A DNA stretch of 64,000 nt from Psammoneis japonica. Its lineage: Eukaryota. The stretch lies in assembly GCA_008632985.1 (NCBI GenBank), contig QPGO01000013.1, forward strand, positions 124,001-188,000, written 5' to 3'. A program made the translations under genes and the position numbers. The notes beneath the pieces are model-generated. The model was given only the letters and a program-made list of their open reading frames with translations, ran no database searches and was not told the origin of the DNA. Below are positions 11,351 to 64,000 of this stretch, in pieces. The stretch's first letter is position 1. The number at the start of each line of letters is the position of its first letter.

Positions 11351-11960
11351 CTTCTTGGAGGCGAAGATGGCGAGGGCCACCTCGTCAAGCACCTGGCTGA
11401 ACACAGATCGACGACACAGAGCGGGGTGATTGCCGCGGGTGCATGCAGAAGATCCACAGATCAGATGCATTGCAAGCCAGGAATCCACGGATGTGAAGGG
11501 GGCATCATGGACACGGATGTGAAGGGCACTGTGGACAGGCCCAGCAGGGTGGTCGAGGACCATGACGATCCAGGTGCTGCAGCCACAGATTGTTGCAACT
11601 GCAGCACCGGGGATGCCCAGATGCTTCACATCTTCATCCAGGCTCCAAGCTCACTTGAGGCCATGAGCAGGCCTTCATCTTCAACTGTGGTGAGGGCAGT
11701 GTCGACTGCTGCACAGGCAAGGGGGCTGTCGCTGAACGTGGTTCTGTGCTCGCCAGGAGTGAGGGTCATGGCCATTGCATTGGTCAGGAGCAGGGTGGCA
11801 ACCAGAAAGCTGCTGCCCACACCCTTGCCTCCATGACAAGGTCCAGCATCGTGCCATTGTGCTGGCAGGTCAAGGAACCCCAGCCGAGCTGATGCCAGAC
11901 CAGAGCCATCAGCCCAACAGAGTTCTTCTGCGCCAGCAAGCCACACACTTTTGGTCACTT
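11336..11960 (-). pseudogene. Decayed C-terminal half of a bacterial-type class-III aminotransferase (ArgD/LysJ-like)
   Basis: Across frameshifts reads TCQHNGTMLDLVMEA-KGVGSSFLVATLLLT...LTPGEHRTTFSDSPLACAA...VEDEGLL...ICGCSTWIVMVLDHPAGPV, matching the PDxxTxAKGLGxGFP / HGTTFGGNPLACAA / VRGxGLxxGxxL pattern. Confidence 0.75.
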
Positions 11961-14900
11961 GTCAACAGTGCAGGATGGCTTTTTTGTGATCTGTTTTAGC
12001 CTCATGGCACTCATCCCAGCAGCCCACGTGATTCATGAACACGCGCCATTCCAGCTTGCTTTCTTCCATTTCCCTGCAGCATTTCTTGTTGCATTTCTTT
12101 TTGTCACACCCACAACCTGATGCCAGCACATTTTTGTTTCACGACCATCTCAAAAAACCTTGAAACACTGCTTGACAAATTTTCTGAGGGGACAGTCCCC
12201 CACAAAAAGATTGGGTCTTGTTGTCTTTGATTGATTGAAAAAAATTGCAGCTTGTCTGCCCATTTGTTGCTCATTTGTTTTGCACTCACTCACTTGCTCA
12301 TTTGCAAATCATGCGTTTGCAGTTGTTTGTTTGGCTTGCACGTTGGGTGGCTTTTCAAGTGCAAAACAAGAAGGAAAGAGATGGCCAAAACAGGAGGCTT
12401 CAAGTGATGATTGCCCATGCATCATGGCTCTTTTGCATCTCTCTAGCCCTCTTTTCCCTCTTGAGAGTTGTGGCGTTCAATGCCCTGCAAGATGGCACAG
12501 GTGAGCCAGGCTCTCCCCAGCCTCTGCTCTGCGAGTTGAACTCTAAAATTGCAAAAAGTGTGTCAGTTGGCCAATTTCTAAAAATCACTTAGTTTCCTGT
12601 GTCTCTTTTGGTGTCTCTGCTGTCTGGGTTTGTCGGCACAAGCTTTTTCTTCTTCTCTGTGGTGACTGCATTGTGGGTGACCTTTTTGGGCTGATCTTTG
12701 TTTTTGGCTTGTTGTCAAGGTGATCCCTGCCCTTCTTTTTGGGGTTGGAGTCAGAGTTGTGTGAGTGCAAACATTTTGCCCAGATTTTAGAAATTTTCAA
12801 AGTGCCAGCCACCAAATGCTGCTCAGCAGTGTTTGTCTCCACTGTTTGTTGCTGCTGCACAAAAAAAACATGAGTTTGATGTCCGCGCACAAATGGAAGC
12901 ACAAAGCAAGCCATGAGGTGAAGAAATGCTCACTTGCTGCCCATTTTGCATGTTGCAAGGCAGCAAATCATCATTGTCATCAAATGATTTGTTTTTTTTC
13001 ATTGACCACCCAACAGATTGAGCAGCCCTGGCCCCACATGCCTTTGTCCCACTTTTTCTTTTTTGTGCATTTCTCATGTTGCTTTCCCCTGCGTCTTTTT
13101 TTTTTCAGGACATTTCACACAGAAAATTGAGAAAAAGGATTGTTGAAATGGCAGCACCATTCTCCACCTCATGTCTCAGGTTGTTTTTAACTTGGGTGAA
13201 GCATGCATGCTGGGGCATGACATTGTGTTTGTCTGCAAGAGAACATGTGCCATCTCAGTGCTTCTTGCATGAAAAAAAAACGCGCGCTTCCCGCCAGTTG
13301 TTTTTTTTTGCGTTTTTCCCTGAGACTGTTTGTGTGGTGGTGTGCTCAACTGCAGGGTGCGCGTTCTTTGTGCACTGTGGGGCACAACATCAAAAAGAGC
13401 AATCTTTTGGCAAGGAATTGTTTTTGCACAAAAATGTGAAGATTTGTTTTTTGGGTTTGATGTGGGCTGCTGCCCTCGTTGCCAGCTGGGTTGTCTTGGG
13501 GACACCCACATCTTTGCACAAGTTGAACAAAATGGTTGTCCCTGAAACTCTGCTTGCTCAAGGGAGACCAGTCTGCTGCTGTTTGGGCTTTTTGTTCTCC
13601 ATGAAGAGCCGCCAATCAGTGAAAGGAACATGTTTTTAAGCTGGTGGTGACAGAGATTGGCAAGAGCAGCAGACCAACCCCCAGTCCTTTGCACAATGGT
13701 GGGAAACACATTTGTGTGTGCATGTTCATCTGTGCTGGCATGTTTCTGCACCCCATGGTCTTGAGTGCATTTGTGCCAAGCACACAGTTGAAATGCTCCC
13801 CAGCCTTTCTCAGGCCGCTTTTGTCAGCAACAAATTTGAAGAAAACAGGTTCCCAAATTTGTCTTTGGGCATGAAACAGAGAGCCCAGCTTTGGCACATG
13901 CGAGCCACACACAGTTGTCGTCATCTGCTCACAGTGCCGCTCTGCCACCCATGGCCTTTTCTGACAACTCCAGCTTGTTCTTGCAAACCTTAGCACCAAC
14001 AAGGCTCACAGTTCAGGGAGCAGCATGAGATCCCACCCAGGAAAGCTGGCTGGACCACATTTGTGCTGGTTTGAGGAAGACAAAGAGCCAGGGGCAAAGA
14101 ACAGGCTTGATGTGGGGACAGCTGTGCTGCTGATGCATGACAATGCATGCCACAACAGCAGCATGGCTTGGAGGGACCACACACAGTGACAGGCTGCAGA
14201 CAACATCAACAGCAGCTGTGTGGGCTGAAATTGACCCGCTGACCTGTGCCCCCATTGAGGAGATTTTTAACTTCTCCCTTGCCCAGGCTGGTCATGCTGG
14301 CACTGGCTTGCTTCTTCTTGTGGGCATCTGCACAGTGTGTGGAAGGGGGGGGGACTCCCCTCACTCAGATTTTTTTGCAGCCCTGCAAGTGCCTGCTCAA
14401 TTTTTCTGCAGCGCCCATGTGCACTTGTGCAAGTTGAGTCATTGCTTCACAGAGCAAGTCAACCAAGAAGTTGTTGCTGTGTGTCCATGGTCTGCACAAG
14501 CACCCCAACTTTGTCTTGACAAAAGTGCCATGTGTTGGAAGATTTGACCAACACTGCTCCGCGCACATTTTTTTGTCTGAAATCATTGTTTGAAAGGTTT
14601 GAAATCCCAACAAACTGCTCTCACATGTGTGCAGGGTGGTGAGAAGGCAACAAGACAAAAAAGTTGAAAAAAACTCCAAAAAGTGCTCAATTGTTCAAAA
14701 CAAGCAACATCCCAACCTCAACAGCGAGACACCAACTTTGGCAGCTGGGACAATGAAGAGCATGGGAGATGAAACAGAGATGTCAGTGCCAGCCAGTCTC
14801 AAATGAAAACAGAGCTCTGTGGGTTTTGCACTCAATGTTGCTGACAGCAGTGTTGGTTTTAGATCACTCAATCTGTGTGGGCCAAGAAGGGGCTTGTTTA

Positions 14901-16561
14901 TCTTTGGTGAGCTGTGGATGTCCCTCATTGTGGTCATTTTTTGGTGGCAGTGAAAATGTGGTGCAACCGCAGCACTTGAGGCCCAACTTGCACTGTTGCA
15001 TTGTTTCAGTTGGAGAGCAGCGCTCCTCACTTAAAAAAATCCACACACACAAAAGGAGATCAAAAGAAGATGCAAATCAAACTTCTTGCTCAAGAACACA
15101 TGCAGCTCATCATGATCTCAGTGCACAATGTTGGGGCAAACTGCTTTTTGTGCAGCTGGTGTTGGCATGGCCACTCATCATTGTGGGTGCTGCTTTGAGC
15201 TGTGTCATTGCAGCATTTGTGTGGCAGGCAGAGAAATTGAAAAAGTCCTGCTCTGGTGTCACAAGAGTGCAACATCATCTTCAAAAAATCTTGCTGGTGC
15301 CTTTTTGTCTCAGCATGCTTTTTGCACTCAATTCCAGGCCCTTGCAAGGTTCTTTTTGTTGGAGGACAAGAGAAAGCAAAGAAGCAGCAACATGTTGGCA
15401 TTGGAGCACAATGCACAAAGCTGCACTTCCCATTTTACCTTCCATTTTTGAGTGTGGCACATTCTTCTTTTTTGCCAGCAGCCAACTCTTGCTGGGCTGT
15501 CTTCTTGACATGAAATGCCCCCCAGATTGCACAGTCAAAAAATGTCAGATTCTGTGCAGCAGGCAGACCCAACCTGCTCCTGCTCAAGATGCTTCTCAAC
15601 CAGATTGTGTGGCACACATCTGGGCAAAAGAGCTTCTGGCACAGAAAGGCATTTTTTTTTGCAGCTGAGGGGCGGGGTGCCACAAATGTCTGTGCCCTCT
15701 TGTCATGCAATGCATCATGCATCAGAGGCAGCAATGCAGTGGTTTCCACTTTCCTTTGTAAAATTTTGAGTGTGCATTGTTGAAATTGTCAACAAGCAGA
15801 ACTTGAAAAATGCCAGCAAAAATGCTTGACAAAATGAAGCTGTTTTTTGCATTTTATCTGATGTCTCATTGACTTTTCTTGCACAAGCTTCAATCAAATG
15901 CATGCAATGTTTAACTCAATTGGGATCAAAATCCATTTTTTGTTGTGCATGGTTTGGTTTCCTTTTGATCGCAATCAATTTGAACTTGGTTTTAACTTTG
16001 TCCTCCTCACTCACATGTGTGTGTGTCTTTGCACGTGTGCAGTCTGCAGCACTTCACGCACGCACATGACCCACCTTCATTTTTCTTCACTTTTGCACAG
16101 CCCGTTGGTCCACGGGTTTTCAGCACATGTTTTGCATGCGCAATTTTCCACACATTTCACAACAGCACACCCTCTCCCCAAAGTTTGAAAAACGAGAGCG
16201 TGTGCTGTTGTGATTCACGTGGATCCTGCGTGTGGTCACAAATCTGCAAATCAACAACCGGCCATGGCGGTGAAAGACTTTGCCCCATTGGCCGACGACA
16301 GCAGCTCAACGCGTGGTGATGCCTGCCATCCTTCTGGTTGGTCAAGATGGGGTTTTATTCGGGCACAGCTTGAATTTTGTGATTGCGAGTGTGCTGTCAC
16401 AAATCTGCCGCATCCAGAATGCTGAGCTGCTGGCGTGTTGTTGTGTGTTGTGTGCACGCACGTCACAAACTTGCTTTTCTGCAGCGTTGTTGTGATCGCG
16501 TGTGCGAGAGTTTTGCATCCAGAATCATCACAAGTTGCCATGAATTGCACTGTCCAAACAA

Positions 16562-16831
16562 GGCATGCACAAAAAGAGGTTCGTTGTTTTTTGACACATT
16601 CGCTGGCAACACACCCGTCTTCTCCAATTTCTGTGTCCAGACCCAGAAAGACTGCAGGCGGTGCTTGTTCCTGCAGCTCCAGAACCACACACATGAAAAG
16701 TTCTTTGCCGCATGTGACACTCTTCAAAAAAGGCATGCACAAAAAGAGCTTCATTTGTTTTTGATGTGTTCACTTGCATCACATCCATCTTCTCCAATTT
16801 CTGTGTCCAGATCCAGAAAGACTGCAGAGGC
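16562..16831. repeat. Degenerate direct duplication (~100-bp unit, ~170-bp period)
   Basis: GGCATGCACAAAAAGAG...TCTTCTCCAATTTCTGTGTCCAGA.CCAGAAAGACTGCAG at ~16562 and ~16732. Confidence 0.85.
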
Positions 16832-18281
16832 AGAGAGTGGGGAGACAACCCATTGGAGGTTGCCTGAGTTGTTGGGCTCATTTTGAAGGCTTCCCAAGTC
16901 TCTCCGCTGTGGTTGGTTCATCTTTGTTGTGCTCTCACAACGTTTTCTACACTGTTTGACAATGAACAAGGTGGCTGCCAGCACTGGCAGTGGCTCTTCA
17001 AGAAAGAGAACTGCAGCAGCTGCTGCAAACTCGCCTGTTCCAGAATCGGCGGCGCCGGATGCACCGGCAAGTCCATATTGCTGTTCCTGTTGGTGGTGTC
17101 AGTTCATCCACATTGCACTCTCACAACGCATTCTGCATTTTTTTGGCAACGAACAAGGTGGCTGCAAGCAGCGGCACTCAAAGAAAGTGAGCTGCAACTG
17201 CTGCAGACTCTGGGGTGCTGTCTCCGTCGGCGTCATTTAATTTGAGTGTAAACAACAAAGTGGAATGTTCATGGTGCAATGCAAATGATTTTAATTTGCA
17301 GGTTTTGCAGGGATAGAGGGTGGGCACTCTCACAGGGAAAACGTGCCCCTGTTTCATGGTGAAACATTTTTTCTCATGGGGAGGGGGGTCTGATCCCACA
17401 GCACAAAAATGTTGATCTGTCACAGCTGGCATGTCATTGCCAGCCACACAACTAATGAGGTTTGAAACCACAAAAAAATTGTCTGTGAAAGGAACAAAAA
17501 TCACAATGAAAAGATGTGTGATGATCACCACATTGCGCGCTCTGATGTGCCGCCCTGTTGCGCAATGTGTGCTGCTCAAACACACCAGCCAAGTGGCGCC
17601 CCCAACTTGCCGGCAGCTGGCTGTTGCTGCTGCACCCTGCAAATTGTCTTGCTGGCAAAAACAATGTGTTGAAGCCACAGAGAAAGCCCTCCGGGGCACA
17701 CTCTCTCTTTTCATGAGATTTGGCCACATGCAAAACTGAGTTTGTGGCTGTTTTGGGAGTGACAGAGAGAAGCACCCTGGTTTGGACCTGATTGCTGTGG
17801 AAACAATGAAAGGGCTGTTGCCCAAGCTTGTGAGTCAGGGCTGGGAGAAAAGCGGAGGAGTGTTTTGCCAAATGGGTGCTTTGCTCGCAGAGCTCCACTG
17901 TTGGAAGTGTGGAGGAAGAAAGAAAAGCAGGAAAAGCACAGCATCTACAACTTCAGAGCCCCCAGGCATGCACGCAGCAGAGATGACGGAGTTTAGAAAC
18001 AAGGGCGGCAACGCACAGTCGTGTCGCACAACGGACGTGTATTGCCCTATATTCTTTTCATGAGGGAATTTGATCATTTCCAGTCAAACAGGTTAAATTT
18101 TTCATAAACGTCAACATTGCCGAATATGTTTTGATTGGATTATTACAGAATTAGCGATTTTGAAAAGAATCGGCGCGGGCTTTTTCCTGGAAGCGGACCA
18201 CAACATACTACACTGACTTGCTTCTGTGGGAGGAGGTGTGTTGGTGTTGTGCCGTGATGCTAGAGAGCATAATAAAGAAGA

Positions 18282-39866: not shown

Positions 39867-40087
39867 ACAATGATGGACCAAGATGGACCACTACCGAGGA
39901 TTTCAACGTAGCCGTTTACGGCCGCAAATCGCAAAATGTACCGGGCGACGTTCAATTTCTACGCGGTCTTTTTGCGGAGGACCAAAACGCGATCAGCTCG
40001 AGATCAATTCACTTTTCTCCTCACAACCCTCTCACAATTCGAGAAACTCACAAAAGTACACTCAAACTTCCTCTCAAGCCTTTCACC

Positions 40088-40576
40088 ATGAAGCTCTCTA
40101 CCATCTTCTCCATCGCCGCCATCGCCTTGGCTACTCCCAACGCCGTCTCGGCTAACTTCGCCATGTACGAGGGAACTATCTTGATGACGAGCGAAACCGA
40201 TGCGGAACTCACCGCCTCCGATACGCTCTACCTCGACATGACTGTCAAGGATGCCTACAACGAGGCTCATACGGGTGGTGACTTTACCGCCGAGGTTGCT
40301 GTCGTGAGCGACCTCGATCTCGTAAGCCGCCGTGCTCTCAACGAGAACGGAGAGCGCAAGCTCCCTAATAGTGGAGGCTGGGCCGGTGTCGTTCAGGTCG
40401 GAGGACAGTGCTACTTGTGTGGTGGGGGTCGCCGTGGCCTCAAGGGAGGAGAAGAGAAGCGCCGTCAGCTCAACGATGCCGTTGTGGGAGCACTCTTGTG
40501 CAACAAGCTCGCTACCGGCTCCAACAGCAAATTCCATGGCGTTTCTGACTGCCAGGTCAGCCTGATTCTTGTCTAA
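40088..40576 (+). CDS. Small secreted diatom-type protein
   Basis: MKLSTIFSIAAIALATPNAVSA signal peptide; strong C-ending codon bias; CYLC and RRGL/RRQL motifs. Confidence 0.8.
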   Translation: MKLSTIFSIAAIALATPNAVSANFAMYEGTILMTSETDAELTASDTLYLDMTVKDAYNEAHTGGDFTAEVAVVSDLDLVSRRALNENGERKLPNSGGWAGVVQVGGQCYLCGGGRRGLKGGEEKRRQLNDAVVGALLCNKLATGSNSKFHGVSDCQVSLILV

Positions 40577-43986: not shown

Positions 43987-44436
43987 TTTTTAGTCCGAGT
44001 ACTTTTTGTGGATGCACGCCATGAATCATCCTAATGTATAAGTCGAAATCTTTACATAGCGATAGCTACTGCCAAGTGTCTATTGGATTCTTCCTTCTAT
44101 ACCACGGCTCAGTTTACCTCTAGTAGAGAGTACCATGGACTTTGAGAAACCTAAAGAATCGAGAATTACTGTACATATCGGGCGGTCAAGTGGTAGTAGT
44201 ATCGTCGCACTTTTTTTACAGAGCTCGAGATGATTTCAGTAATGACCTGACTAAGAAATAACAAGCGCACGAGCTCTTCGCCTCAGCACTCTCTTTATCT
44301 CTCTGCGCGTTGCATCTCTCGCCTCTCGCCTCCCAAGCCGGGAGTGGCCTCTCGCATCTCTCAACTCACAACCGGTGGTTGTGAAGCAAGAAACAAGTAG
44401 AGCAAGTTGAAAGTATAACTGAAAGAGCAATACAGC

Positions 44437-46001: not shown

Positions 46002-46550
46002 CGGAAATACGTAGAATCTGGAAAATACTTGATTTCTATGCTTGGCTCACTCGCTATTCGTGCGTATGAGGGATGCACAATAATGCAGAGGACAAGAATT
46101 GGAAGAGATCTGCCCACACACTCTCTAGAGATTGTAGTACTTCCTGTTCTCCTTCCGTAATATCTCTTTCTGACATGTGCTCTATGGCACGAGATGCAGG
46201 AAGGAAGAAATCCTAGCTTCTAACTACTCGATGCGGATTACCGGTACGTACGGTATTCGATGGCACGGAAAAAAAACAAACTTCTCTTTCTTGTCCGAAT
46301 GAACGCACTCGAGCAAATTTTCCAAAATTGTCTGACATAAATGCCGATACAAAGTTCGTAATAAATTAATAGATGAATACATGGAATAAACAATCTGACC
46401 CATAGTAAATAAATAAAACATTTAGCTTTTAATACGTATATATCGTTTATGCCTCACATTTTTTTGGCAGAACGCATCAAAATCATTTTTTTGATCGGAA
46501 CGAAACACCAGTCGGATCTTGAATAACAAAAAGCAAACAGAAAGCTGTCA

Positions 46551-48797
46551 ATGACGGAAGAAAGTGGCCCTCAAGCGGCGCTGTGTGCACCGGAGAGAGA
46601 TGAAATACCTGAAGCATTCGACGACGAAGCCCCGTCAGATTCGACGGGAAATGTGGAAGCCGACCAGCATTCTCTTCCAACTCCGGAGAAGCTTAAAAAT
46701 GATTTAGCTATGAGCCATGCTTCAGGAAAGATTTTGAGCACGATCGAAGAAGCGATTGAATACCCTTTAGTTCACATGGAGGAAGAAAAAGAGAAAGAAC
46801 CGAAGGATCTTATCTCCAGTCCAGTCATTAGGGGCTGTCTACTGCTCTCAATGATTGTTCTCGTAATAGGTCTATCATTGGATTAACTTCCAAGCCAAGC
46901 ACAGCAAAGTTGACAGAACGAAAGAGCGCGCTCTTAAATTTCTCAGCGTAGTTTCGGATCCAACAGCACTTACTACCGACGGTACGCCTCAAGCTCTCGC
47001 AGCAGAATGGATCGCAAACACCGACGACGTCTATGTCGTTCCCAAGTCACCTTACTCCGCTAACGCTCACCGCTTTATTCAACGATATGTCCTTGCTGTC
47101 TTGTGGTATTCTATGGGAGGAAAGGATTGGCCCCAGCAGCTCAACTTCCTTTCTGAAAAACGCGAATGCGCATGGGCACAGGTGTTCCCCGTTGGAAGAC
47201 GAAACTATCAAGTTGGTGTATCATGTGAAGGCGACAAAGTGACCAAGCTCTTTATGCGTAAGTTCATAGTCGTGTACATACGAGATATTGTTTGCTGCTC
47301 GTCTCATTCTACATTCCGATACTTTGTGTTTAGCTGGCATGAAGATGACGGGACGGCTGCCAGCTGAAGTTGGCTGGTTGTCCAATTTGAACCATTTGTC
47401 GCTCTACGATAACCAGATCACTGGTCCGTTGCCATATGCACTGAAAGACTTGACGGCCTTGAAGTTTCTTGCTATACAAAAGAATCAAATCAGTGGCGAA
47501 ATCCCTGAGTGGATAGGAGAGCTTTCCAACCTTCATGATTTGGGCCTCAACGACAACAATCTTAAAGGCGCCCTACCAGAGTCTATCTCTTATCTTACCA
47601 ACCTTCATGAGCTCGCTCTTGGCCATAACAAGCTCATTGGTGACATTGCAGTTCTCGAGCCTCTCACAGAGCTACGCGGCCTCTTCTTGGAAGGGAATGT
47701 GTTTAGCGCCAAATTCCACCACGAGACGCTGGCGAACTTGCAGAAGCTGGAATACCTAGATTTGAGTGGTAACAAGTTTCAAGGCAGACTACGAGATCAT
47801 TTCCTTAATTTTAAGGAGCTCAAGTATCTCGAAATAGCAAACAATACGCTGACTGGAACGTTCCCTCAGTACATCGAAGAGAACACTGCTCTGAAGTATC
47901 TTACGGTAACTGGAAACGAGGTACGCTGACTAATTCCCGTCGTTCCGGGAAAACATGCCATCTTTCTAATATATTTGTCCTGTTGCACTTAATATCAAAA
48001 AGATTGAGGGAACAATTCCTGAAGCCTTGTCAAACCTTAAATCCCTTGAGCACCTCGACATGGGTTCGAATGACTTCACCGGTTCGATGCCGACCTTCTT
48101 TGGTAGCATGAACAGATTGAAGTACTTATTATTGGATGATAACCACTTTGAGGAGGGTCCTATTCCCAGCTCTCTTCAAAATCTAAGCTCACTCCACGCC
48201 CTTTCATTGGAGAACACGGGTCGTACTGGACCCTTGGAAGACTGGATTGGATACAACCTAGGAAGAGTGAGGTACTTGAATCTGGCACGAAACGAGTTGA
48301 CAGGCACCGTTCCAAAGATTTTTGGAGAAGGACTGCATTGGGTAGAACTTCTACTTCTGCAACAAAATGACCTATCTGGAACTCTTCCGGATATGAAGCG
48401 ATTGTCCAATCTCGGTAAGTTTGTCTTGAGAGCTCTCATCTGGAGATAGTTTGGAACTTTCGATTTGGTCCTCGCTTAAAAAGAACTATTTCGTTCGTTA
48501 GAAATGCTACTCATTGATAGGAATAGCATTGAAGGTTCTGTCGAAGATCGAGTCTGTAATGGCGACGACATGGCTTTGGAAAGTTTGGAGCAGTTTGTAT
48601 CGGACTGCACCGGTAACGACCCCGAAGTCATCTGCCCCTGCTGCACTCAGTGCTGTCACGACGAAGACAAATTGTGCATTGACTATGTCTGGGTTGAGAA
48701 CATTGATGGTCATTGGGAAGACTACACTGAAGACGCCCGTGTGTTTAGTGAGCAGATTGAGTTCCAGGTACAGTCGACCACTCGGAAATCGCCATAG
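46551..48797 (+). CDS. Type-II membrane LRR protein (LRR-3), with introns and apparent frameshifts
   Basis: HSLPTPE, TM, TPQALAAEWI, QRYVLAVLWYSMGG..W, LRRs, SDC...VICPCCTQCC. Confidence 0.85.
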
Positions 48798-51557: not shown

Positions 51558-53299
51558 TACGGGTTCGTCGGAAGAGAAGGTATCTTTGTCTGATCAGCGT
51601 CCGCTTCGACCTTTTTCATATGATAAGTCCCCTACAGTTTCTCGTTGATAGGTATGTAAACCGTACACCGATTTCGTCACCACTGCGTGCTGAGCTAGAC
51701 TTACGATACAACGATGCAAGATCACTGATCACTGATGCGTAACACCCCTCAACAAAAAGAGATGATGACAATGAATGGGATGAAACTCGCGTCTCTTGTG
51801 GCGTCGTCAGGAAAGAGGCATAGCGGGTCGAATGAAGTCACTTCACCGCAGTGACGACGCGAAGAAAAAAGGCCTTTCTTTGTAGAACCTGGTACGAATT
51901 CTACGTGGAGCTGCGGAAAATTACGTTCGTGACAACGAAACGGGTGATTGGGTGGACAGCAGAAACCCGGAAAGGTGAACCGTAAGTACGCATAATTGAC
52001 TTGATTAAGTGATAGTTTTACTATCGTTAAAAGTGAATGACCGACTTTGCTTCACTTAAGACACGAATGGATGAACGTTATTTCTCCAGCGGTTCCAACT
52101 GTTCCAACTGTTCCAAACTGTTCCTTTAGCGATTTCACGATTAGATTTCACAAAATGCTTTCTCCGGAAATGTAGCTCGACAAAAGACATATTCTTTATA
52201 CGCGCTCTTCCCGTAAACGTGACACGTACGAATGAGGTGAAATGGACAAATTCGTTTTGAGCGCATTCATCATCTTACAAACCATTCAGTTCAACTTTGA
52301 TCGTCGCGAACCGATGACCACCACCCATCGTACGCATTGAAGTGCGACACTGCGACATCATGCCGCCACAGGGAAGCTTCACGTCACGTCACGCCTCCAC
52401 GCTGCGACACCGGTACTTAAACGCTGTAGAAAGCAAGACGTGGCATTTCGTTTTCGTCAGCATGTCGTCACACGCCACACGTCATCATTGCTTGGTACCT
52501 TCTTTCACTCCCGCCCCACTTCACGGCCGGGCAGCATGGATGCACGCAATTTGGTGACAGCAGCTCACATTCTCACAGCAATTTGAGCACATGCTTCTCA
52601 GGAGACCCAGCTGTCCTGCTGCCCTTCTGGCCTGTTCCAGCCCCAGGCAACCGCAACCCATCAAGCGAGATTTTTTGTGCGCAGCTTTTGGCATCGACAA
52701 TTTTGTCTCTGTCCAGCAGAGCTTGGCTTTTGTGGCAAACATCAAATGCCTTGATGATGTGATGCATTTGTGACAACAACGCATGTCTCCAACAACCAAG
52801 GTGCACATTTCATCACAGGAAGAGCACAGTGTCAGTTGGCGTTTCACGTTGTTTTGCAAACGCGTTGACCAGTGCTGACTCCTGCACGCGTGTGTGCCAC
52901 CCACATCAAAAACACACAATGTCAGCCACAGTGCAGCACACTGCTGTTGCCGCTCTGCCACCCCCTTTTCACCATTGCAGTTGCATGGAACCATCTGCTC
53001 TTTTCATTTGAAAGTTGCGCTGTTGTTGTCACAATGCAGCTGCGGCTCTGTGCAACCTCTTTTGTTGTTGCAGATGGCACCACTTCTTTTTGCACTCTCT
53101 TGTGTGGAGTTCAGCAAGTTGATTTTGTGTGTTGTGGTTCACACAAGACACTGCACATGTGCTTTTTCTGGTTGCCTCCAATGTCTTGTGTTTTGTTTGC
53201 TTTGCAGAGTTTCTGCAAAACTCGCATTTTTGTCCCAACGATTTTCAAATGACAGGCGCCACCATCTTGAACTTGTTTTTGTTTGTTTGCACTGTGACA

Positions 53300-54530
53300 C
53301 TTGCTGTTTGGTGCTGCCAAGCATCTGGAACTGCCTTGGAGGCTGTTTCTGTGCATCTGCATCACTTTTGCGGCACAGCTGATGTTGCCCCCCTCTCTGG
53401 AGTGCATTTGTTGCACAAACAGAAGTTCAAAAGCAGTGCAATCAAAATGGACAAGTCAGCCAAAGCAGCCACCAAGAAACATCTGGGGCTGGCAAATTCT
53501 TCCATTGGCGGCAGTGGCATTGCCCCAAGCAAACAATTCTTCAAGCCAGCCAAAGATGTCTTTTTGCATTGAGAGCTTCATTGACTCGTTGGAGAGGCAC
53601 ATTGCCAACCGGCGAGTTGGCACCATCAACCTCTCCAAACTTTGGTTGATCCCAAGATGTGCCCACAAGGTCTTGTGGAATTGAGCCTCTTGACCATCGA
53701 AGATCATGAGACCCAGAAGACCAGCCCTCTCTCTCTTTCAGGTTCTCATCACAGGAATGGTGTTGATGGGTTCAACATTGCCAAAGCATGAGTCCTGTTC
53801 CATGACACTGTTGTTGGTTGGTTTCATCAAGAATTTGCCAACAAGAATCAACTGCCAACAAAAGCATTTCTCAAGGAGAAGCATGACAACATGTTCATTT
53901 GTTGCGCAAGTGGAAGTGCAGCTTGCTGTTTGGCGCTGTCGAGCATCTGGACCTGCCTTGGAGGCTGCCTCTGTTCATCTGCATCACTTTCATGGCAGCT
54001 GATGTTGGCCCCCTCTCTGGAGTGCATTTAAACCACAAACAGAAGTTTGAAAGCAATGCAATCAAAATGGACAAGTTGGCCAAAGCAGCCAGTGAGAAAT
54101 GTCTGGGGCTGGCAGATTCTTCCGTTTGGTGGCAGTGCCCCTCAAGCAAACATTTCTTCAAGCCAGTTGAAGGTGTTCTTTTGCATTGAGAGTTTCTCGT
54201 TGACTCACTGGGAGCACATTGACCACCGGCAGGTTGCTCCAAAACTTGGTGCCATGAGCCTCTCCAAACTTAAGTTGACCCCAAGACGTGCCCACAAGGT
54301 CTTGTGGAGTTGAGCCTCTTGACCATGGAAGATCACAAGACCCAGAAGACCAGCCCTCTCTTTCATGTTCTTCATCATCACAGGAATGGCGTTGACGGGT
54401 TCAACAGTGCCAAAGCATGAGCCCTGTTCTATGACATTGTTGTCAATTGGTTTTGTCAAGAATTTGACAGCAAGATTTGACCGTGAATGCCCGCAAAAGC
54501 CTTTCTTGAGGAGAAGCGTGACAACATGTT
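53300..54530. repeat. Tandem duplication, ~620-bp unit, of a formerly coding segment
   Basis: CTTGCTGTTTGG..CCCTCTCTGGAGTGCATTT..GCCCACAAGGTCTTGTGGA..GACAACATGTT at ~53300 and ~53922. Confidence 0.9.
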
Positions 54531-55053
54531 GATGTTGGTTGCATTCCATCAGGAACATTGAGAAACACATTGCTGCTGTTTAGATGTGCTAGGTCAAGAA
54601 AGGAGTTGGTGTGCTTGTTGATTGCATCTGAGTGAACTGCTCTGGGTGATGAGAGAGGTGACAAGAGAAAGACCATCTCACACCACAGCATTTGTTTTTT
54701 TCTGTCAGATGTTGCAAGTTCACTTCCCCAATGGCCCAAGAAAAAAGGGCTGTTTCAAGGAGCCGCTGGCTCACCTTGCTGATTGGTGCAAGGCAGCTTG
54801 CCAACTGCAATGGCGCTTGTTTTGCAGAAGAATGCATCGCCATCATTGCTTGGCTCATGCCAAGATGGCAAAGGAAATTCTTGAGGGTGATGAGAATGAA
54901 ATGCAAGAGGCACATGAGGGCACCAAAAGCTTGCAACTGTGAGATGGAAACAAAGAGGAGGAGGATCAAGGGCAAGAGGCATGGATGTCTCAGCTGAGGA
55001 AGAGGAGGAAGACACAGAAGAGGAAGAGCAGGAGCAGGGGGGGGGGGGGGCGT

Positions 55054-55575
55054 GAAGAATGCAGAAGACTTGGCACTTGGAGACATGAAGGCAGAGAAGG
55101 AGAGGGCAGGAGACAGGCATTGCAAATGCTGGATGGAGCTCATGAAAGCCACAACTGGAGTGAAAAATGATGACGATCTCATTGGCCTTTGCGGCTTCAA
55201 GCCAAAATCAGGAGCGCCAGGAGCACCTGTGTTTCATTGGTTCTTGAGCAAAGGCAAGTGCCACCAACAAGAAAGCGCGATGACAGAGCAAACGTGTGAC
55301 AAAGTTCATGGAGCAGGGGAAGCTGCTGAAGAATGCAGAAGACTTGGCACTTGGAGACATGAAGGCAGAGAAGGAGAGGGCAGGAGACAGGAGACAGGCA
55401 TTGCAAGTGCCAGATGGAGCTCATGAAAGCCACAACTGGAGTGAAAAAGATGACAATCTCATTGGCCTTTGCAGCTTCAAGCCAAAACCAGGAGCACCAG
55501 GAGCACCTGTGTTTCATTGGCTCTTGAGCAAAGACAAGTGCCACCAACAAGAAAGCGTGATGACAGAGCAAATGT
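55054..55575. repeat. Tandem duplication, ~275-bp unit
   Basis: GAAGAATGCAGAAGACTTGGCACTTGGAGACATGAAGGC...CCACCAACAAGAAAGCG at 55054 and 55328. Confidence 0.9.
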
Positions 55576-56159
55576 GCAACAATGCTTGAGTCATGTTGCA
55601 GGTTAAAAAATTTGTTTTGATTGACCCCAGTTCATGAAGCAGGAGAGAAGCTGCTGCAGCCAGGCAATTCTGCAGGAGCTGTTCCTCACTTGTTTGGCTG
55701 CATTGCTGAAGAGAATGAGGGCATTGTGTTGTGTGAAGAATGGTTTGTCCAAAGGGCCAATGCATTGAATGGCCATCCCATGGAAACATGTGTGGGCCTC
55801 ATCAAATGTGCTGAACACAAACCCAACATTGCCTGGAAATTAAATCAAAGATGATGCATCAACAAGATTGAGCACAAGGTGCATGTGATTTGCAGCAGTG
55901 CACCGCAGATTGCAAGACTCAAGAGATTGAGTCAGGAGGTGATGCAAAAGCTTCCACATCTTGTGCGGGGTGCTGATTTTGTTGGTTGCACCCAGCAGGG
56001 CAACCGTCCAATGTGTGTGACACAAGATTGAGCTGAGTGCAATTTCCAGGTGTGGTTTCCAGAAGTTTGGAAAGATTTGAAAGATTGGAAGCCAGGGGAG
56101 GGTTTCTGCATCTTGCTGGAAGGAAACGTGTTGATGCCATTGGATGCCAACTTGCTGAC

Positions 56160-56620
56160 AAGCAGCCTGCCTGTGAAATTCTTGCAAGGACACAACAACA
56201 CTTGCTTGTTTTGTCCCTGACCTGTGTTCTTCATTGTGCTTTGTGCTGGTGACCTGGAAATGAGAGATTGCATTCCATCTCATGTTGAAACATCTGCCAA
56301 CCATGCCAACACCAATGACAATTGCATGTTGTTTGAAAAGCACATGCTGAGCCACTGTTTGAAGGGAAAGTTCCCATCAACAAACTCAAACATGAAGTTT
56401 TGCTGCAGTTTGGATCAAACCATTTTCTTGGAAGCAGGTGGTGAATTTGATGTGTGACAACCTGCAATGATGGCTGCACAACTTTGTGCCATCTGGTGAA
56501 CAACCACTGCATTGCCTTGCACCATGGATCTTTGACTCCAATCACAGTTTTGCATTGCCAGCAAAGGAGGACATCAAGTGCTTGAAACGGTGTCTTGGAA
56601 ACAAGGAACATGATGTGAAA
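56160..56620 (+). pseudogene. Decayed ORF with a papain/C39-like peptidase pattern
   Basis: VKFLQGHNNTCL (~56173-56208), NHCIAL (~56502), WIFDSN (~56525): Q..C / H / D order typical of papain-fold proteases; family uncertain. Confidence 0.4.
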
Positions 56621-56999
56621 CATGTGGCAAAAAAGGTCTGAAAACAAGTGGCCATGGTGTGCCAGTTTGAACTTCCAAGGGTGGTGGCACAGCAGGCAAA
56701 TGGCAAAAGGAAAGATCTTGTGTTGGGTGGTTCATCTGGTTGCATGATGCAAAGTGACAATCACAGTGTTTGTTCATTTTCCCACTGCCATTTCATTCCT
56801 CAGACTCATCACTTTCACTGTCCCCTCCTGCACTCTCCTCCTCCTCCTTGCAGTCCACTGCTGTGCTGTTCTCCTCCTCATCATTGTCACTCTCTTCCTC
56901 CCAACTCATCAGCTTCGCTGTTGTCGTCCTCCTCCAAACATTCCTCAAAATGATTCATTGACTCATGCTGGTGAATCGCACCAAGAATGGCTTTGTGCT

Positions 57000-59480
57000 C
57001 ATCCTCACTCAAATTGCGTGGAATGAGAAGTGAAGCCTCATTCCTGTTGCATGTCCTTGGCAGCTGCAGAGAGGCTGATGGTTCATTCAGCTCGGTGTTT
57101 GCAGCTGCACTTTGCTTGAGCAACACTCTTGTCTGACATTCCTCAGTGTCAGCAGGAGTGCACCATCCTCTGGCCCATGGAGCACAGTTTGCAAGCATTC
57201 CCTTGCAAACCCACTCACTGGCCTCAACAGGTGTGGGTGGATCAAACTTGTTCCACACCACATCTTCGCATGCTTTGTGGGGCAGTTCATCCCATTGCAG
57301 CAGATGGAAGCTCTCATCAGATTCACAAGACAAAATGTGGCACAGCTGTTCATGACAATTTCCTTTGCCATTTCCTCAGTCAATTTGTCCAACACAGGTT
57401 TGTGGGCCAACTGCATCTTGTCAGCATCACTCTGAGTTGTTGGAAGCACCTGACAAACTTGCCAATCATTCAGTCCCTCAAATTGGGCCACAGTTTGCAA
57501 GCTTGGTTGCCACCTGCATGTCGAGGCCACTCAGCTGGCTTGACATTGTTCACCCAAGGTCAATTCAGCTGATCCAGGCAGCCTTCACAAGGGCAAGGAA
57601 TTGGTTGAATGGCAACCCAAACAATGGGAAAAAGAGAATCAAATCAAAAATGGCACATGGCGCCAATGCCACAATGGTGCATGCAAACTTGCACCAATCC
57701 AGTCAACTTGACTTCAGCTGAAGAGCCAAGAACTTCATCAGCTTCTTGCAGAAAATGTGCCCTTTCTTTCAACTTTTGAAGGGACTCCCTCAAAGCATGT
57801 TTCCTGTCACCAACTTTGCCACACTGGCACATTTTTTCATTTTGAGAAATTTGAAACATTCCTGAGTGCAGCTGTGCTCTGCTGCAACATTGTTGTCATC
57901 CATGGCCAGAGCATCAGCTCCAATTTTGCTGTCCTCATCATTGACTCCTGCAACAGTTGCAGACTGCATTGCTCAACACACAAGTGATTCAACACAGGCT
58001 CCAATTCCATCGACCTCTCCTTTGTCATGTCCAGGTCAGGGGACATCTTTGGAAGTGAGATCATCGAAGGCGGTCTGATCACCAGTGCATTTGGGGACTT
58101 TCCCAGTGCGGTTTGCACACAAAAGAAAACATGCAGGATCTGTCCAGAGGTCCCAAATGCCCAACTGCACTGACTGACAGACTGTTTTGGTGCAAATTCT
58201 GTGCAACTTTCTTTGACAGTCTCACTTCCAAAGACGTCCCCCAAGGTGCTCCAATGGCGCGGTCCAATGCAACGTTGCATTTGTGGGCAAACACTGACAA
58301 CAAGTGCAGTGCCGAAGGGCATCAATGCTGTTTGGCACAACCATTGCTCTGTGCAATCCCAAATTGCAAGCCACACCTGACACAGTCCATGGTTCTTTAA
58401 CTGTGCGACAAAGTTTTCCAAGTGAGTGTGGGTGGTGGTGGCGGCATCTTGCTCAGAAGAGTCAAAGAGATGTGCCTGATGTGTTTTTTCAGCCTCATTG
58501 TCAACCATCACATTGCAAACTCTTCTTTCAATGGACAATGTTTTGTTGTTGCCACAATGATCCCCATGAATTTGGTTGTTAAACTTGGCTGCTGGAATGC
58601 CAGAGCAGTCATGAAATGTGAAAATGCTGTTGGGCATTGACTCAAATGCTTTGCAACACATTTCCATGCAATGATTTTTCCCAAGAATGGCCACCTGGGG
58701 AAGGTGGCAATGCAGCTTCTTTGCACTTGGAATGCAGCGTTCTTTTGCAAAAAGTCCAACTGTTTTGTGGAACCTTGTCAACAAGATCTTTCATTTGACC
58801 TTTGCATCCTTGTTCCCACCTGGATCTGCCTCACAAACAGGACATGCTTCCATGAACATGTCATGCTTGAGGCACCTTTTTGCAGTCAAATGCCATTGAA
58901 ACAAAACTTGGAGCACACTGGAACTTTCACTCTGTTCCAACAATGGAGTTGGGTGGGATGCCATGCTTGCATTCACCCAAAACATGTTTCCAATGAGGGT
59001 GGTCATGACCATTGACATTGCCACAAATGATGGTTGCAGCTGCATCTCAAGCTTCAGGATGAAGGTGATTGGAGTTGGAGCCAAACGTTTCCTCTTGATG
59101 ATGGCACATTGTCCTCTCCAATTTGCGTGCAGTGCTGTCATGGTTCTCTTGTTCACTTTTTTCCCCTTCATCTTCAACAAGAATCATGTCTCTTGAGTTG
59201 GGATGCTGTGCCATGTCTGGGATGATTTGACAACCAGCGCACATCAGCTTTGCTGATCTCAGGGGAAACTTTGTGAGGGTGCTGATGGGGCTGTGCACTG
59301 AAGACCACATGACATTGCCTTTGATCACAATCAAAGCCACTCTGGCCGTCTTTCCCTGCCTCGTCATTTGGTGACAAACAGCCCCTGGATTCAGGCTGCT
59401 GGGTGCATTGGCGCAGTCCTTGGACAACAACCCAGGCTCATCAGCAGGTTTTTCCAGAGAACTGGAGACTCCAGCCGCCA
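57000..59480 (-). mobile_element. Fossil DDE/D-type transposase gene (possibly Sola-like), interrupted by a MITE; ends approximate
   Basis: FHDCS..AAKFNNQIHGDHCG..TLSIE, DSSEQDAATT, SNGCAKQH*C..ALHLLS...LDRAIGAP|GHDKGEVDGIGA, IPCPCEGC, FEGLNDW. Confidence 0.65.
58037..58243. mobile_element. 207-bp MITE with ~22-bp TIRs and 4-bp TSD AGGT
   Basis: GGGGACATCTTTGGAAGTGAGA ... TCTCACTTCCAAAGACGTCCCC; AGGT at 58033-58036 and 58244-58247; removing it restores GAP-GHxKG. Confidence 0.88.
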
Positions 59481-59894
59481 CTGAATGGACAAAAAGATTG
59501 TCGTCAAAGCAGCACTGACCATTGCTTTTGTCATTGGCATGTGGCTGCCTGCATTTTGCCCAGCTGCTGGGTTGTTTGCAAGGCAGCAGACTTTGCTTTT
59601 GGCAACGTCAAGTCACAAGTCTCAACATGAGCCAACTCAGGAAAATGCAAAGTGCGCACAAAGGCAGTGGCTTGTTGCTCTTGAATGGCAGTGCAAGACA
59701 AAACTCTTTGTCTTGTTTCAGCCGCTGCATGACAAAGTGCTTGTTGGGGATTTTCGTGGGTTGCATCAAAGGCGCGAGGGGATCAACAATGGGGCACTCT
59801 CAAAATTGAAGGAGCTTGTTGTGCTGAGTGCAAAAATGGGCCAGCAATGGGTTGCGCACCTCTGTTGACACCTGCTGGAGCTGGGGCAGGCCTT

Positions 59895-60110
59895 CTGTTG
59901 GTCATGTGGCCACAATTGACCCAGGGCAGGACAAAAAGCCAAGCGTGCTTTGTGGCCAGACAGCCACCAAGAGATGTTCAGTGTGGCTGGCTCCTTTTGC
60001 GCATCGAGCCGCACACTCTGTTGGTCGTGTGGCTGCATTGACCCAAGGCAGGATGAGTGGTCAAGTGTGCTTTGTGGCCAGGTGGTTGCCAAGAGATTTT
60101 CAGGGCAGCT
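59895..60110. repeat. Degenerate tandem duplication (~125-bp period)
   Basis: CTGTTGGTC.TGTGGC..ATTGACCCA.GGCAGGA..GTGCTTTGTGGCCAG..CCAAGAGAT occurs twice. Confidence 0.75.
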
Positions 60111-60185
60111 TGCTCCTCTTGCACATCAAGCTGCACACAGTGGCAAGCAGCTGCTTTTTCACAAAGAACAACAAATTCTCTTGTG

Positions 60186-60189
60186 CACG

Positions 60190-60231
<42 letters not shown>

Positions 60232-60333
60232 ACCACACACACCACACACACCCCCCACACCACACACCACACCACACACCACCCCCCCCACCACACACCC
60301 ACACCACACACACCACCACACCACACCACACAC
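60186..60333 (+). repeat. (CA)n microsatellite grading into CACCA repeats
   Basis: Read directly from the sequence. Confidence 0.95.
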
Positions 60334-60556
60334 TGTTTGCTCCAACAAGAGCCAACAAGAGCTTGCAGAAGATGCCATCTTGTCTGCAAAAAAGGAGAGA
60401 TGTGTGGAGTGCATGGGCAGACATGCGCATCACCACTCTGATGCAGCACAGCCCTGGTTCAATCCCGTGCCTTCTTTGCAGAAGCTTGGGCTTTCAAACA
60501 CTGCCTTTTTGACAGAGGCCTTGGATGCAGACATGAGCAAGTGCCAGCGCCATGAT

Positions 60557-60816
60557 GGCCTGTTCCAGCTCCAGGTGCTCCGTGCGGGCTCGATTCCCAT
60601 CATTTGGAAATTTGTGAATTTGGCGCAATTGACTTTTTCCAAATCCGTTTTTTGCCAAATCGAAGGGCAAGTGTGCACTTCACATGCATTTTCGGGTGTG
60701 CACTCACCTTTCGATTTTCGAAACGATCAAAATTGAAGGAGTCAATTGCACCAAACTGCGCAGAAAATCGGCCTCTTGCGTGATGAAAAGCAGAGCACCT
60801 GGAGCTGGAACAGGCC
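60557..60816. mobile_element. 260-bp MITE with perfect 24-bp TIRs and 4-bp TSD TGAT
   Basis: GGCCTGTTCCAGCTCCAGGTGCTC / GAGCACCTGGAGCTGGAACAGGCC; TGAT at 60553-60556 and 60817-60820; inner inverted pair TTTGGCGCAATTGACT/AGTCAATTGCACCAAA. Confidence 0.88.
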
Positions 60817-63800
60817 TGATGATGAGACACCCTCCAGCCAGCACACGCAAGCCAGCACATGCAAGAAAAGACAGTTGCGTGGTTTTTGCCACATGTGGTC
60901 TCTGAAATTTGACCAAACTTTTGCCACAAAAAGTGCGGCAGCAAGGGTGACCCATCATTGCCCAAGAGGGTCTTGTGGCCCTTCTTCTCAGATCAGCTCA
61001 GGCATCCTCAGCAGGAGGACAGCGCTGGTCTGTCCCTGTGCAGGCACCAAACAGCACTGCTTGGGCCAGATTCTGCCCACAGAGATGGAACATCAGCTTG
61101 AAATTCCACCAAGGCAGATGCTGTCAACACAGCACCCTCCCAAGATGACCAAAACTCTGCCAAGTGTGGCTGCAATGCCAAACTCCACTCAAATCATGCA
61201 CGCAGCAAGTTGGCACATTTCTGCACAAAAACGCCACACCCTGCATTCCTGTGACTGCATTTTGATGCCAACCAGAAACAAATTTCATGACCACATGTGG
61301 TCACCAGGTGCAGCTGCTTTTGTCACCCTGTTTTTTTTGTGCTTTTGCAACAACCACATGTCCACACAACATGATGACTGACAACAACGAGAATTTTGTC
61401 AACGACCTTGGATCTGACAAGTCTTTTGCAAGCCTGTCATTGCACTTGCGTTGATTGCTTTGTTGATTGATGTGCGCGGCACCAGCGTGGTTGTGCTTTG
61501 TGCAACATTGCCACCACTCTGACACTCCATTTTCCTTCTTGCCCTTTCAGACCTCCAGAAGAGTGGCGGTGTTGACACCAAAGCAGATTGTGAGCAGGAG
61601 ATCCATCAAAATGTTGGCAAGGTGCACAGAGCATGAGCAGAAGATCCATCAAAATGCTGGCAAGTTTGACTGTTTTGTGAGTTTTTGGGTGACACACGCG
61701 CTGTTTGCAAGTGGTTTTCTCAACAATGTTTTTGTTTTTGTGTCTGTCATTGGTGCGGCCACTGGCCTGGCAGCCTTTTGGGAAGGCGGACTGTGATGCT
61801 GTGTCTGCCATTTCATTTGTCCCAGCAAATGAGGTTGGCTCAGTGTCTGTTTGTCGCCAATTCTCCAGAGGATGCTGCTGTGCTCTGTGTGCTTGCAGTC
61901 TGTGCAAGTTCATCCCCAGCTGGCTTGCTGGTGTCATGACTGTGGCAAATCTTCACGTGCAATGCATGGCATGTGTGGTCAACCAGCCACAATGGGAGAA
62001 CAGGGAAAGCAAATTGACCTGATTTTAAACAAGCAGATCTGTTTCTGCTTGGCACCACAGTGCGCCATCTTTCCACTGCGTGGGCATCTTGGGCACGGCA
62101 ATTGTGCCAAGCTGCGCAGATGCACTCACACAAAGTGTCAAACTGGCAAGCCAATTTTGCCAAAAGGGAATCCTGCAAAGCTTCCTGTGCCACTCATTGC
62201 ACTTGCCCTGGCTGCTGTGGTGGCTGTGGTTTGCCTGGAAGTTCTCAACAAACTTCAAACTCATGATGCAAAACAGGCACCTGTGCTTGCACATTTTTGC
62301 AAACCAGATGATTCACTCCAAAGAGCAAGAACAAAACGCAAAACAGAAGGAAGAGTCATCATTGTGGCGTGCAGCAGGATCTGAATGGGTTCAATGTGCC
62401 AGGGGGTTCTCACACCCTTTTGGTTTTTTTGTGCTGTCACACTCAGCTGTGTCCCCACCCATCTTTTCTGGGACTTGTGTTGGAGTTCCAAGGCTTGCCA
62501 ACAGATGCACAGCAGTTGGCATTGCTGACCCCAACACAACCTTGCCACACCCTCCTTCAGCAGACCTTCAACAGCTTCTTTGACAGCAAGGCACCCTCCA
62601 GAGATTGTTTCTTCACCCTCATCCAGCCAGCTCATTTGCTGCAATCTGCCAAGGAACACCACAAGGCACACCTTTGGGTTCCTGTTGACCTCCTGGTCTG
62701 TTTCTTTTGACTCCTGTGTTGACTTCCCAGCCCTCACATCTGTGGATTCCCTTGACTTTCCAGCCCCCGTTCTGTGGATTCATCTTGACTTCTCAGCCCT
62801 CAAATGACTCTGCTCTTTTGAGCATTGTGCCACAATGACCAGCACACATTCTGTCTCACCATCTCCCAACTCACTGAATGGCTTGCAAACACATTGGCTT
62901 GTGTTGCTGGCTGTTGTCACCATGTCAACCAGGCACAGAAGATGGGAAGCATGCACAAAACCCGCGGCTCAACCCAAGGTTGCACAGCACCGCTGCTCCC
63001 CACAACTGCCCTTTCATTTGGTTGTCACTTGCAAAATTGTGCCTCAAGTGTTCCTTTTGCATGTTTCCAGGCTGGCCATTGTTGGTTTTCCATGGACACA
63101 CTGCCGCCATGCCCTCTCCATTTGTGCCTTGTCAAATGGCATGCTGGAGCACAGATCTTGGCACTGGGGTGCCACAAACAAATTTGCGCTGCCTCCCTTG
63201 GCTTCTTTTTCAAGCAAGGAAACTGGCTCCTGGACTTTTTAGTTTGTGCCTGTTCAACTGTGGCCTCATTTGCACACCAGGGCAAATTTCCAGAAACTCT
63301 CACGAAAACTGCTCTTCAGCAAAAGCACCTGGCACCTCAGATGCATCTCACCTGAAACCCCCAGAACAGCTCCAATGTCTGTCTCTTCTCTTTGTGTCTC
63401 TGAAGGAGACAGGGGTGCTCTGAGGAAACATTCTGGCAATGCTGGCATGCTGGAGGTGATGCCATGGTGGAGGCAGTTTGTGCAGGAAATTTGCCAAAAA
63501 ACTCCACACTTTCAAGAGGTGCTGTGGTGGAGCCAAACGTCACTCAATGACACAAAGTGCAAAATTGTGTGTTTTCAGGTGTGAAGATTTTGTCATGAGG
63601 TCATTTGGGGCTCATGGAGCTGCAACCAAAATGTTTTGTCTTTTTTCAAAATTCTTTTCAGGTGATGCTTGGCACGACTTGAAGACTGGTGCCACCAATT
63701 TTTTGTCAACTCAAACTTCTTTCCTCCCAACAACAACTGGCACTTCTCCATGGGCTCTGGTCACAGCTCATCAAAAGAAGCAAGAAGACTGCTCAACTGC

Positions 63801-64000
63801 AAGCAGAGAGAATGAAAGCAGGGCTCAGCTTGTCCCTGATGATGATGCCAGGGAGGAACTGGGTGCCACCGCTGTTGTTTTGAGGAGGGAATTCCTTCTG
63901 CAGACTCAGGCAAGAGCACCAGCATCCACAACCACCTCTTGGCTGTTTTGCAAAAGTGTGACATTGATGAAAATGAAAAGCTTGACAAGATGGAACAGGC

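Follow-up and report, generated by a model that had tools for sequence, protein, structure and literature searches.

The CA/TG swaps that separate two tandem repeat units in a 64,000-nucleotide stretch of DNA from the diatom Psammoneis japonica are best explained by the combination of methyl-CpG decay and a separate, TpA-specific A:T-to-G:C process. The latter would act on silenced repeats and favor TAY. We put the probability of this reading at about 80%. Beyond what the first-pass annotation of this DNA had noticed, the tandem pair was found to sit within a transposon and TA was found to be lost faster than CG. The whole stretch that was analyzed, referred to as the window, is G000:C14:124001-188000, where C-numbers denote contigs of the 91.4-Mb assembly G000 and L-numbers denote loci. 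All swap and site counts were taken from assembled sequence.

CA/TG swaps in the tandem pair

Unit 1 of the pair (53300..53921, + strand) consists of a ~130-bp repeat and the 5′ part of the long ORF1 of the element, and it is followed by its partner, unit 2 (53922..54533, + strand). The two units are 81% identical by BLAST and are sisters in the tree described below. Their pairwise alignment gave 589 aligned columns with 82 mismatches. These comprised 12 CA/TG swaps (24 columns), 10 differences of CG versus TG or CA, 2 of TA versus TG or CA, 22 other transitions, and 24 transversions. All six CA/TG pairs quoted in the first-pass annotation were recovered, at 53428/54048, 53457/54077, 53480/54100, 53707/54336, 53825/54454, and 53872/54507, and six further swaps were found. 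The 10 CG-type single differences likewise agree with the CG/TG and CG/CA pairs that it had reported. Its statement that the units differ mainly by CA/TG swaps was too strong, since swaps make up 24 of the 82 mismatched columns (29%), or 36 of 82 when single CG and TA differences are included.

Two genic serpin duplicate pairs in the window, with a similar level of divergence, served as controls. Of the isolated double mismatches, CA/TG made up 8 of 13 in the tandem pair, 1 of 19 in one control, and 2 of 26 in the other. When all swaps were counted, there were 12 in 589 columns of the tandem pair, compared to 1 in 1303 columns and 4 in 1297 columns of the serpin pairs. The excess of swaps in the tandem pair over genic duplicates is therefore real. 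Swaps were also seen in the remaining island repeats, with 2 in 249 columns of the 55053 pair, 5 in 122 columns of the 59894 pair, and 2 in 110 columns of the 16548/16718 repeat. The last of these bears out the claim that the repeat at 16562-16831 has the same pattern.

A dead transposon in a TpA-erased island

The tandem pair is housed in a dead, 7.3-kb copy of a DNA transposon (52629..59892, + strand). It has inverted termini starting with GGCC and a 4-bp target-site duplication, TTCT, on both sides, and it is collinear with an 8.8-kb young family member at 67-81% identity. The family has 74 matches in the 91.4-Mb assembly, and its young members, at 8.8 kb, carry a pair of convergent ORFs. 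Terminal inverted repeats, a target-site duplication, and dispersed copies are what a cut-and-paste DNA transposon would have, and it is from this anatomy that we infer the label. Pfam scans gave no meaningful match for either ORF, only a sub-threshold pacifastin, and detected neither a reverse transcriptase nor a viral domain on the element. The homologue search returned one protein (P0004, 31%, unnamed) among 7999 scored candidates, and an Atlas search with the element proteins gave matches at 0.94-0.95 that were unnamed clusters, mostly eukaryotic. An ORF2 remnant located by tblastn of P0004 (58431..58955, − strand; E 2e-18) is a putative transposase, a label that again comes from the element anatomy.

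Further inside the element is a second, younger tandem duplication with a 280-bp period (55053..55582, + strand), in which 2 CA/TG swaps and 5 CG-type differences occur in 13 mismatched columns. A 260-bp miniature derivative of the family (60557..60816, − strand) has both termini and a target-site duplication of TGAT. A right end of the large element near 60.8 kb was considered and rejected, since the sequence there is this separate miniature copy.

TpA is almost absent from the 7.3-kb element, with 9 occurrences versus 493 expected (~2%), and CpG is reduced to 86 versus 417 expected. The element opens a TpA-erased island (52629..64000) with 11 TpA versus 749 expected and 144 CpG versus 674 expected, and low TpA runs ~4.5 kb past the window end (L036). 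A second TpA-erased island (11600..17600; TpA 26 versus 412 expected) contains the 16548/16718 repeat. Both islands show near-total loss of TpA, loss of most CpG, and a gain of CA/TG. The genic 18-52 kb of the window has 1369 TpA versus 2357 expected, and the ordinary parts of the window carry FtsZ, LRR, serpin, WD40, and bZIP genes. In this window and its loci, TpA loss is confined to repeat islands and host genes are spared. Three tandem serpin-type and three LRR-type copies (29787-35086 and 37397-48661) keep normal TpA, and so duplication alone does not attract the mutator.

Two other stretches of the window have low TpA. The 130 bases outside the left end of the element (52497-52628) are also without TA, which may be slight spread past the repeat edge or another relic. 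A purine-rich kilobase between ordinary genes (21001-22000) has lowered TpA (0.23) and CpG (0.42). Elsewhere in the genome, there is a silicon-transporter family with 24 matches (best E 2e-208), which by gene content alone points very probably to a diatom.

Ancestral state at the swaps

Both units were aligned with 28 relatives (21 young and 7 older), some of the young ones being alleles or tandem units and hence non-independent. In a tree of these 30 sequences, built on columns with the hypermutable ones masked, units 1 and 2 were nearest relatives (89.2% identity versus at most 86.3% to others; bootstrap 95). As the units are closest kin, the duplication arose in the lineage of this copy and the differences came later. 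At four of the 12 swaps (53428, 53621, 53707, and 53872), a single relative had TA and no relative had CG. At another four, CG was found in 12-16 young relatives (53369, 53480, 53815, and 53849). At the last four, neither TA nor CG was found in relatives (53457, 53473, 53551, and 53825). The swaps thus appear to be of mixed TA and CG origin. The masked tree and these TA and CG witnesses support the proposal of the first-pass annotation that an ancestral CG or TA was mutated independently on opposite strands after the duplication. It had named resolution of every swap to CG as the refuting outcome, and the swaps instead divided as given above.

The site-by-site test in this pair is only suggestive because the relatives are just 70-79% identical. 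Counting against our reading, a TA witness is present at only 4 of 12 swaps, each time in a single relative, and 4 swaps are CG-type. The direct CA/TA pair that had been pointed out does exist (53801/54430), as one of the 2 TA-versus-TG/CA differences. It is poor evidence for an ancestral TA, as 17 of the 21 young relatives read CG at that position.

One alternative is CpG decay alone, in which all swaps came from ancestral CG and TA was simply absent. The CG-type swaps and the 10 CG-type single differences in the pair are what it predicts. The four swaps with TA and without CG in relatives are where it fails, and TpA at ~2% of expectation does not fit it. It is also refuted by the held-out test and the changes of tyrosine described below, and we give it next to no chance of being correct.

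Loss of TA and CG in young copies

A firm test was possible in the young subfamily, which provided 18 copies with a median identity of 91.6%, among which the alleles L013/L024 and the tandem units on C80 are not independent. Polymorphic pyrimidine-purine steps fell into 111 with CG/CA/TG, 47 with TA/CA/TG, and 36 with CA/TG only, and at 6 more TA and CG were present together. There were no invariant TA columns. In 17 of the 18 copies, TA was retained at 8-23% of 93 TA-type sites, meaning that 77-92% had been lost, almost only to CA or TG. The same copies retained CG at 32-75% of 135 CG-type sites. Background was low, with other transitions at 0.6-3.1% and A to G after A, C, or G at 0.7-1.5%. 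The median hazard ratio of TA versus CG was 3.9, a value somewhat inflated because 29 of the 93 TA-type sites were classed from CA and TG only.

Copy L025 is an escapee, with 76% of TA still in place against just 58% of CG. It was used for a held-out test, with sites classed from 16 copies (L025 excluded and one allele dropped) before L025 was read. L025 turned out to carry TA at 19 of 32 sites classed as CA/TG-only and at 27 of 28 where other copies had shown TA. Among CG sites it carried TA at 0 of 120, and among those fixed for CA or TG at 1 of 285 (Fisher p 4e-21). The direction of change is therefore TA to CA or TG, and a gain of TA in L025 like that of fungal repeat-induced point mutation (RIP) was excluded. 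The C:G to T:A polarity of RIP, with its gain of TpA, was accordingly not seen at the 285 fixed sites. L025 is truncated, and it is adjoined by an LTR-retrotransposon pol (L031:853-5153, G000:C196; protease, RT, RNase H, and integrase) whose TpA is normal to high. This neighborhood may be recent, or may lie outside mutated chromatin.

One young copy contains a four-unit tandem array on C80 whose units, at 97-99% identity, still differ at TA-type sites. At 7 of 47 TA-type sites, CA was found in some units and TG in others, a state seen at 2 of 86 CG-type sites and at 2 of 273 stable ones. The array thus reproduces the finding in a setting where the site classes are secure, and its units were identical at 36 of the 47 TA-type sites. 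The array (L010, L014, L017, and L019; G000:C80:152281-158210), with units of ~1.8 kb, shares with the window pair the 130-bp repeat in which it starts, and this repeat seems to found internal duplications.

The alleles L013 and L024, which were assembled separately and have flanks 99.3% identical, show the same product at 77 of 77 mutated TA-type sites, compared to a median agreement of 59% in other pairs. This comparison and the C80 array were the internal evidence on which a sequencing or polishing artefact was weighed, that is, random miscalling of a modified base at TpA as G or C in the assembly. Random miscalling would give neither the allele agreement nor the C80 pattern, and miscalling determined by context would make the copies alike. 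An artefact is therefore disfavored, and we regard it as extremely unlikely.

Strand and sequence context

Within each copy, CA and TG products occurred in similar numbers, meaning that both strands were mutated. No same-strand clustering of TA products was detected (0.51 versus 0.52 expected; 0.49 versus 0.50). TA was kept in 16 of 378 cells with TAY on both strands, 122 of 632 with TAY on one strand, and 103 of 237 with TAR on both. At one-strand-TAY sites, there were 311 hits on the TAY strand versus 199 on the other. Most of the TA steps surviving in the islands of the window, 27 of 37, were in TTAA, TTAG, CTAA, or CTAG. These counts indicate that the base 3′ of A matters and that TAY is preferred over TAR. 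As read from the aligned copies, the process is TpA-specific, directional, and two-stranded, acts after insertion and tandem duplication, and is faster than and partly uncoupled from the loss of CG.

Since TA and CG loss share the same islands, one possible explanation is error-prone gap filling by a polymerase of the eta or iota type during the repair of deaminated methyl-C, with A to G errors in the flanks. Polymerase eta has a WA motif. Several results make this quite unlikely. AA to AG was 1.3%, no higher than GA to GG, and TA loss was ~4-fold above CG loss, its expected trigger. L025 lost CG normally yet kept TA, and no significant correlation linked the per-copy hazards of TA and CG (rho 0.28, p 0.26). 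The absence of same-strand tracts also argues against gap filling.

Editing of an RNA intermediate by an ADAR-like enzyme before reverse transcription was also considered, as the genome has two ADAT1/ADAR-type genes. We find this barely credible for an element with inverted termini and no reverse transcriptase match. In addition, the similar numbers of CA and TG in each copy and the divergence of the tandem units after their duplication do not fit RNA editing, and a 3′ G is the least-hit context.

Loss of tyrosine in the encoded proteins

The proteins also carry a trace of the ancestral state. When element copies were compared with the outside homologue P0004, none of 61 aligned Tyr cells was Tyr and 56% were His or Cys, against a baseline of at most 15% where the homologue has another residue that is itself neither His nor Cys. 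Copies alternate between His and Cys at three of the P0004 Tyr positions. In the ORF2 remnant at 58431..58955, 8 tyrosines of P0004 could be aligned, with His or Cys at 6 and Tyr at 0. Similarly, 9 of 11 tyrosines in ORF1 of L025 are opposite His or Cys in other copies. A change of Tyr to His or Cys points to a TA ancestor, since a CG ancestor would give Arg.

Loss of tyrosine was also seen away from this family. Four near-identical C5-methyltransferase genes (L053, L054, L055, and L059; G000:C301 and C297) lie in TpA-erased DNA with nearly all tyrosines gone, and they look like repeat-borne or duplicated copies struck by the same process.

Candidate agents

We propose that two processes act on chromosomal transposon DNA. 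The first would be methyl-CpG decay, CG to TG or CA, which is established chemistry, with CG methylation presumed here. The second and faster one would convert TpA to TpG or CpA, with one A:T of the palindromic TA step becoming G:C. It would strike either strand with about equal odds, and a site once hit would cease to be a target. Two copies that share a TA at duplication would then become CA in one and TG in the other in roughly half of cases. The agent may be an adenine deaminase of the host, with a TadA/ADAT fold, which is drawn to silenced chromatin and converts A to inosine, read as G. As an effect, mobile DNA would be inactivated for good, in a RIP-like defense of opposite polarity. For this agent and this effect together, we consider the chances to be even.

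A TadA/ADAT agent is favored because adenine deamination gives exactly this product and because one engineered TadA, in the available text describing it, has a hierarchy of YAY over YAR (PMC12528748). Several findings argue the other way. CA was hit at background here (0.7%), whereas TadA-type editors also hit CA, and the same-strand clustering expected of a processive single-strand deaminase was absent. In addition, the genome has 9 deaminase-family matches and 2 ADAT1/ADAR-type matches, all of which look like housekeeping genes. Among the best-scoring candidates in searches of G000 with PF00383, PF14437, and PF02137, a scope in which divergent folds are missed, there was no sign of an expanded family of deaminases, and no chromatin-domain fusion of a deaminase was obvious in translations read by eye. 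The candidates are an ADAT2-like gene on C26, a TadA-like gene on C38, and two distinct ADAT1/ADAR-type genes on C40 and C79 (L061-L064). The C26 gene has HAE, PCxxC, and an Asn after the GC motif, and this Asn is general in eukaryotic ADAT2, so its presence says little. Another open frame (L043; G000:C79:87006-90176) joins a nucleoside-deaminase domain to what by eye is a 2-oxoglutarate/Fe oxygenase-like domain, and it probably belongs to purine metabolism.

The main rival to adenine deamination is chemistry on the thymine side, since A to G and T to C leave the same sequence. The T in RpTpA would be modified or oxidized in silenced DNA, to a base of the 5-hydroxymethyluracil or 5-formyluracil type, and would then pair with G or be repaired to C. 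The data are strand-symmetric, so TAY for A equals RTA for T, and the sparing of CA and lack of strand clustering suit this explanation. Modification of thymine is known in other protists. Against it, the precedent of Mettrop et al. argues for adenine deamination as a putative mechanism (10.64898/2026.01.13.699255). We consider a thymine-side process unlikely, though a serious contender.

A C5-methyltransferase of the RID/DNMT4 type could also be imagined, with the RIP-related reaction reversed on the same YpA step. There are 27 C5-methyltransferase family matches in the genome, several of them stand-alone. We know of no chemistry by which such an enzyme would turn T into C, which counts against this route. 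Diatom DNMT4 is reported to be moderately related to RID, with unknown function, and within the set of genomes described in that paper it occurs only in diatoms (PMC9998398), so this route would leave Bigelowiella natans, discussed below, uncovered. Overall, we judge it to be very unlikely. Three intact stand-alone C5-methyltransferases (L049, L050, and L056; G000:C10, C59, and C34) share the motif H-x-S-x-P-C-x-G, and they may resemble RID/DNMT4.

Comparison with known systems

In ascomycete fungi, RIP depends on homology pairing, on RID, and on the sexual cycle, in which it is premeiotic. The diatom pattern is like RIP, as far as the sources consulted describe it, in its dense dinucleotide-specific transitions on both strands, its restriction to repeats, its sharply bounded islands, and its dead elements. 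RIP, however, changes C to T and raises TpA, whereas the diatom process removes TpA.

Methyl-CpG decay accounts for the 135 CG-type sites, where only CG, CA, and TG are present, and for the 4 CG-type swaps of the pair. It cannot remove TpA or change Tyr to His or Cys, and here it runs more slowly than the loss of TA. Diatoms are described as having DNMT5-dependent CG methylation in the available text of one study (PMC9998398).

DNA deamination by TadA or ADAT2 has the same product, from A through inosine to G, but those enzymes, as described in the texts available, also edit CA or prefer GAA. For example, ADAT2 of amphioxus (ADAT2/3) is reported there to prefer GAA and not TA (PMC10354150).

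The closest parallel was found in the rhizarian B. natans. According to the text of the 2026 preprint of Mettrop et al., two integrated regions of viral DNA had de novo mutations that were A to G or T to C in 210 of 211 and 20 of 20 cases, all at TpA (10.64898/2026.01.13.699255). As reported there, the targets are NCLDV and virophage DNA, TpA-poor clusters are enriched in transposon domains, and ADAT2 is the candidate enzyme. The process is described as ongoing, at a rate raised ~1000-fold and switched on or off by line, and transposons are proposed as further targets. In the diatom, the differences at TA-type sites between C80 units of 97-99% identity and the large escape of L025 would suit such behavior. 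As in that account, the diatom changes are A:T to G:C at TpA only, on both strands and in foreign or mobile DNA only, leaving TpA-poor blocks rich in CpA and TpG. By these features, the TpA-erasing process is of the same kind as that of B. natans.

The two cases also differ, as far as the preprint text goes. The host is a diatom and not a rhizarian, and the target is a multicopy DNA transposon rather than integrated viral DNA. Nothing points to a viral origin of the target here, which has terminal inverted repeats, a 4-bp target-site duplication, and no viral Pfam match. Erasure is near complete, with TpA at ~2% of expected, compared to a Rho of 0.45 in the NCLDV region of B. natans. The mutations in B. 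natans were observed de novo, while the diatom rates come from comparison of copies. The preference for TAY over TAR and a parallel CpG clock were seen here, and the main text of the preprint contains neither "trinucleotide" nor "CpG". A candidate ADAT2 homologue is present in both organisms, the diatom one being the C26 gene with its unspecific Asn. The preprint's main text makes no mention of diatoms or stramenopiles, and the literature that was searched, with most subscription journals outside its scope, yielded no account of diatom repeats losing TpA. New here are a second lineage, a transposon target, near-complete erasure, and a measurable context preference.

Implications

The near-saturating diatom trace adds another lineage to the TpA-specific A-to-G process and brings ordinary mobile elements among its targets. 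To our knowledge, targeted mutation of repeats as a defense is textbook material only for fungi, where the change is C to T. In genomes with such a process, repeat ages, tyrosine content, and homology searches are distorted. The preference for TAY gives a criterion by which enzymes can be screened, CpG decay provides an internal clock, and an escaped copy is available. Since diatoms can be cultured and edited, an enzyme that mutates genomic adenine or thymine becomes testable. The broader idea is that diatoms, or this lineage, run a dedicated genome defense that changes A:T to G:C at TpA wherever mobile DNA is silenced, by means of a natural DNA adenine deaminase or thymine-modifying enzyme specific for TAY, shared with or convergent on that of B. 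natans. We hold this idea to be evenly balanced between right and wrong. If true, eukaryotes would have a second RIP-like defense, from which a natural adenine base editor could be obtained.
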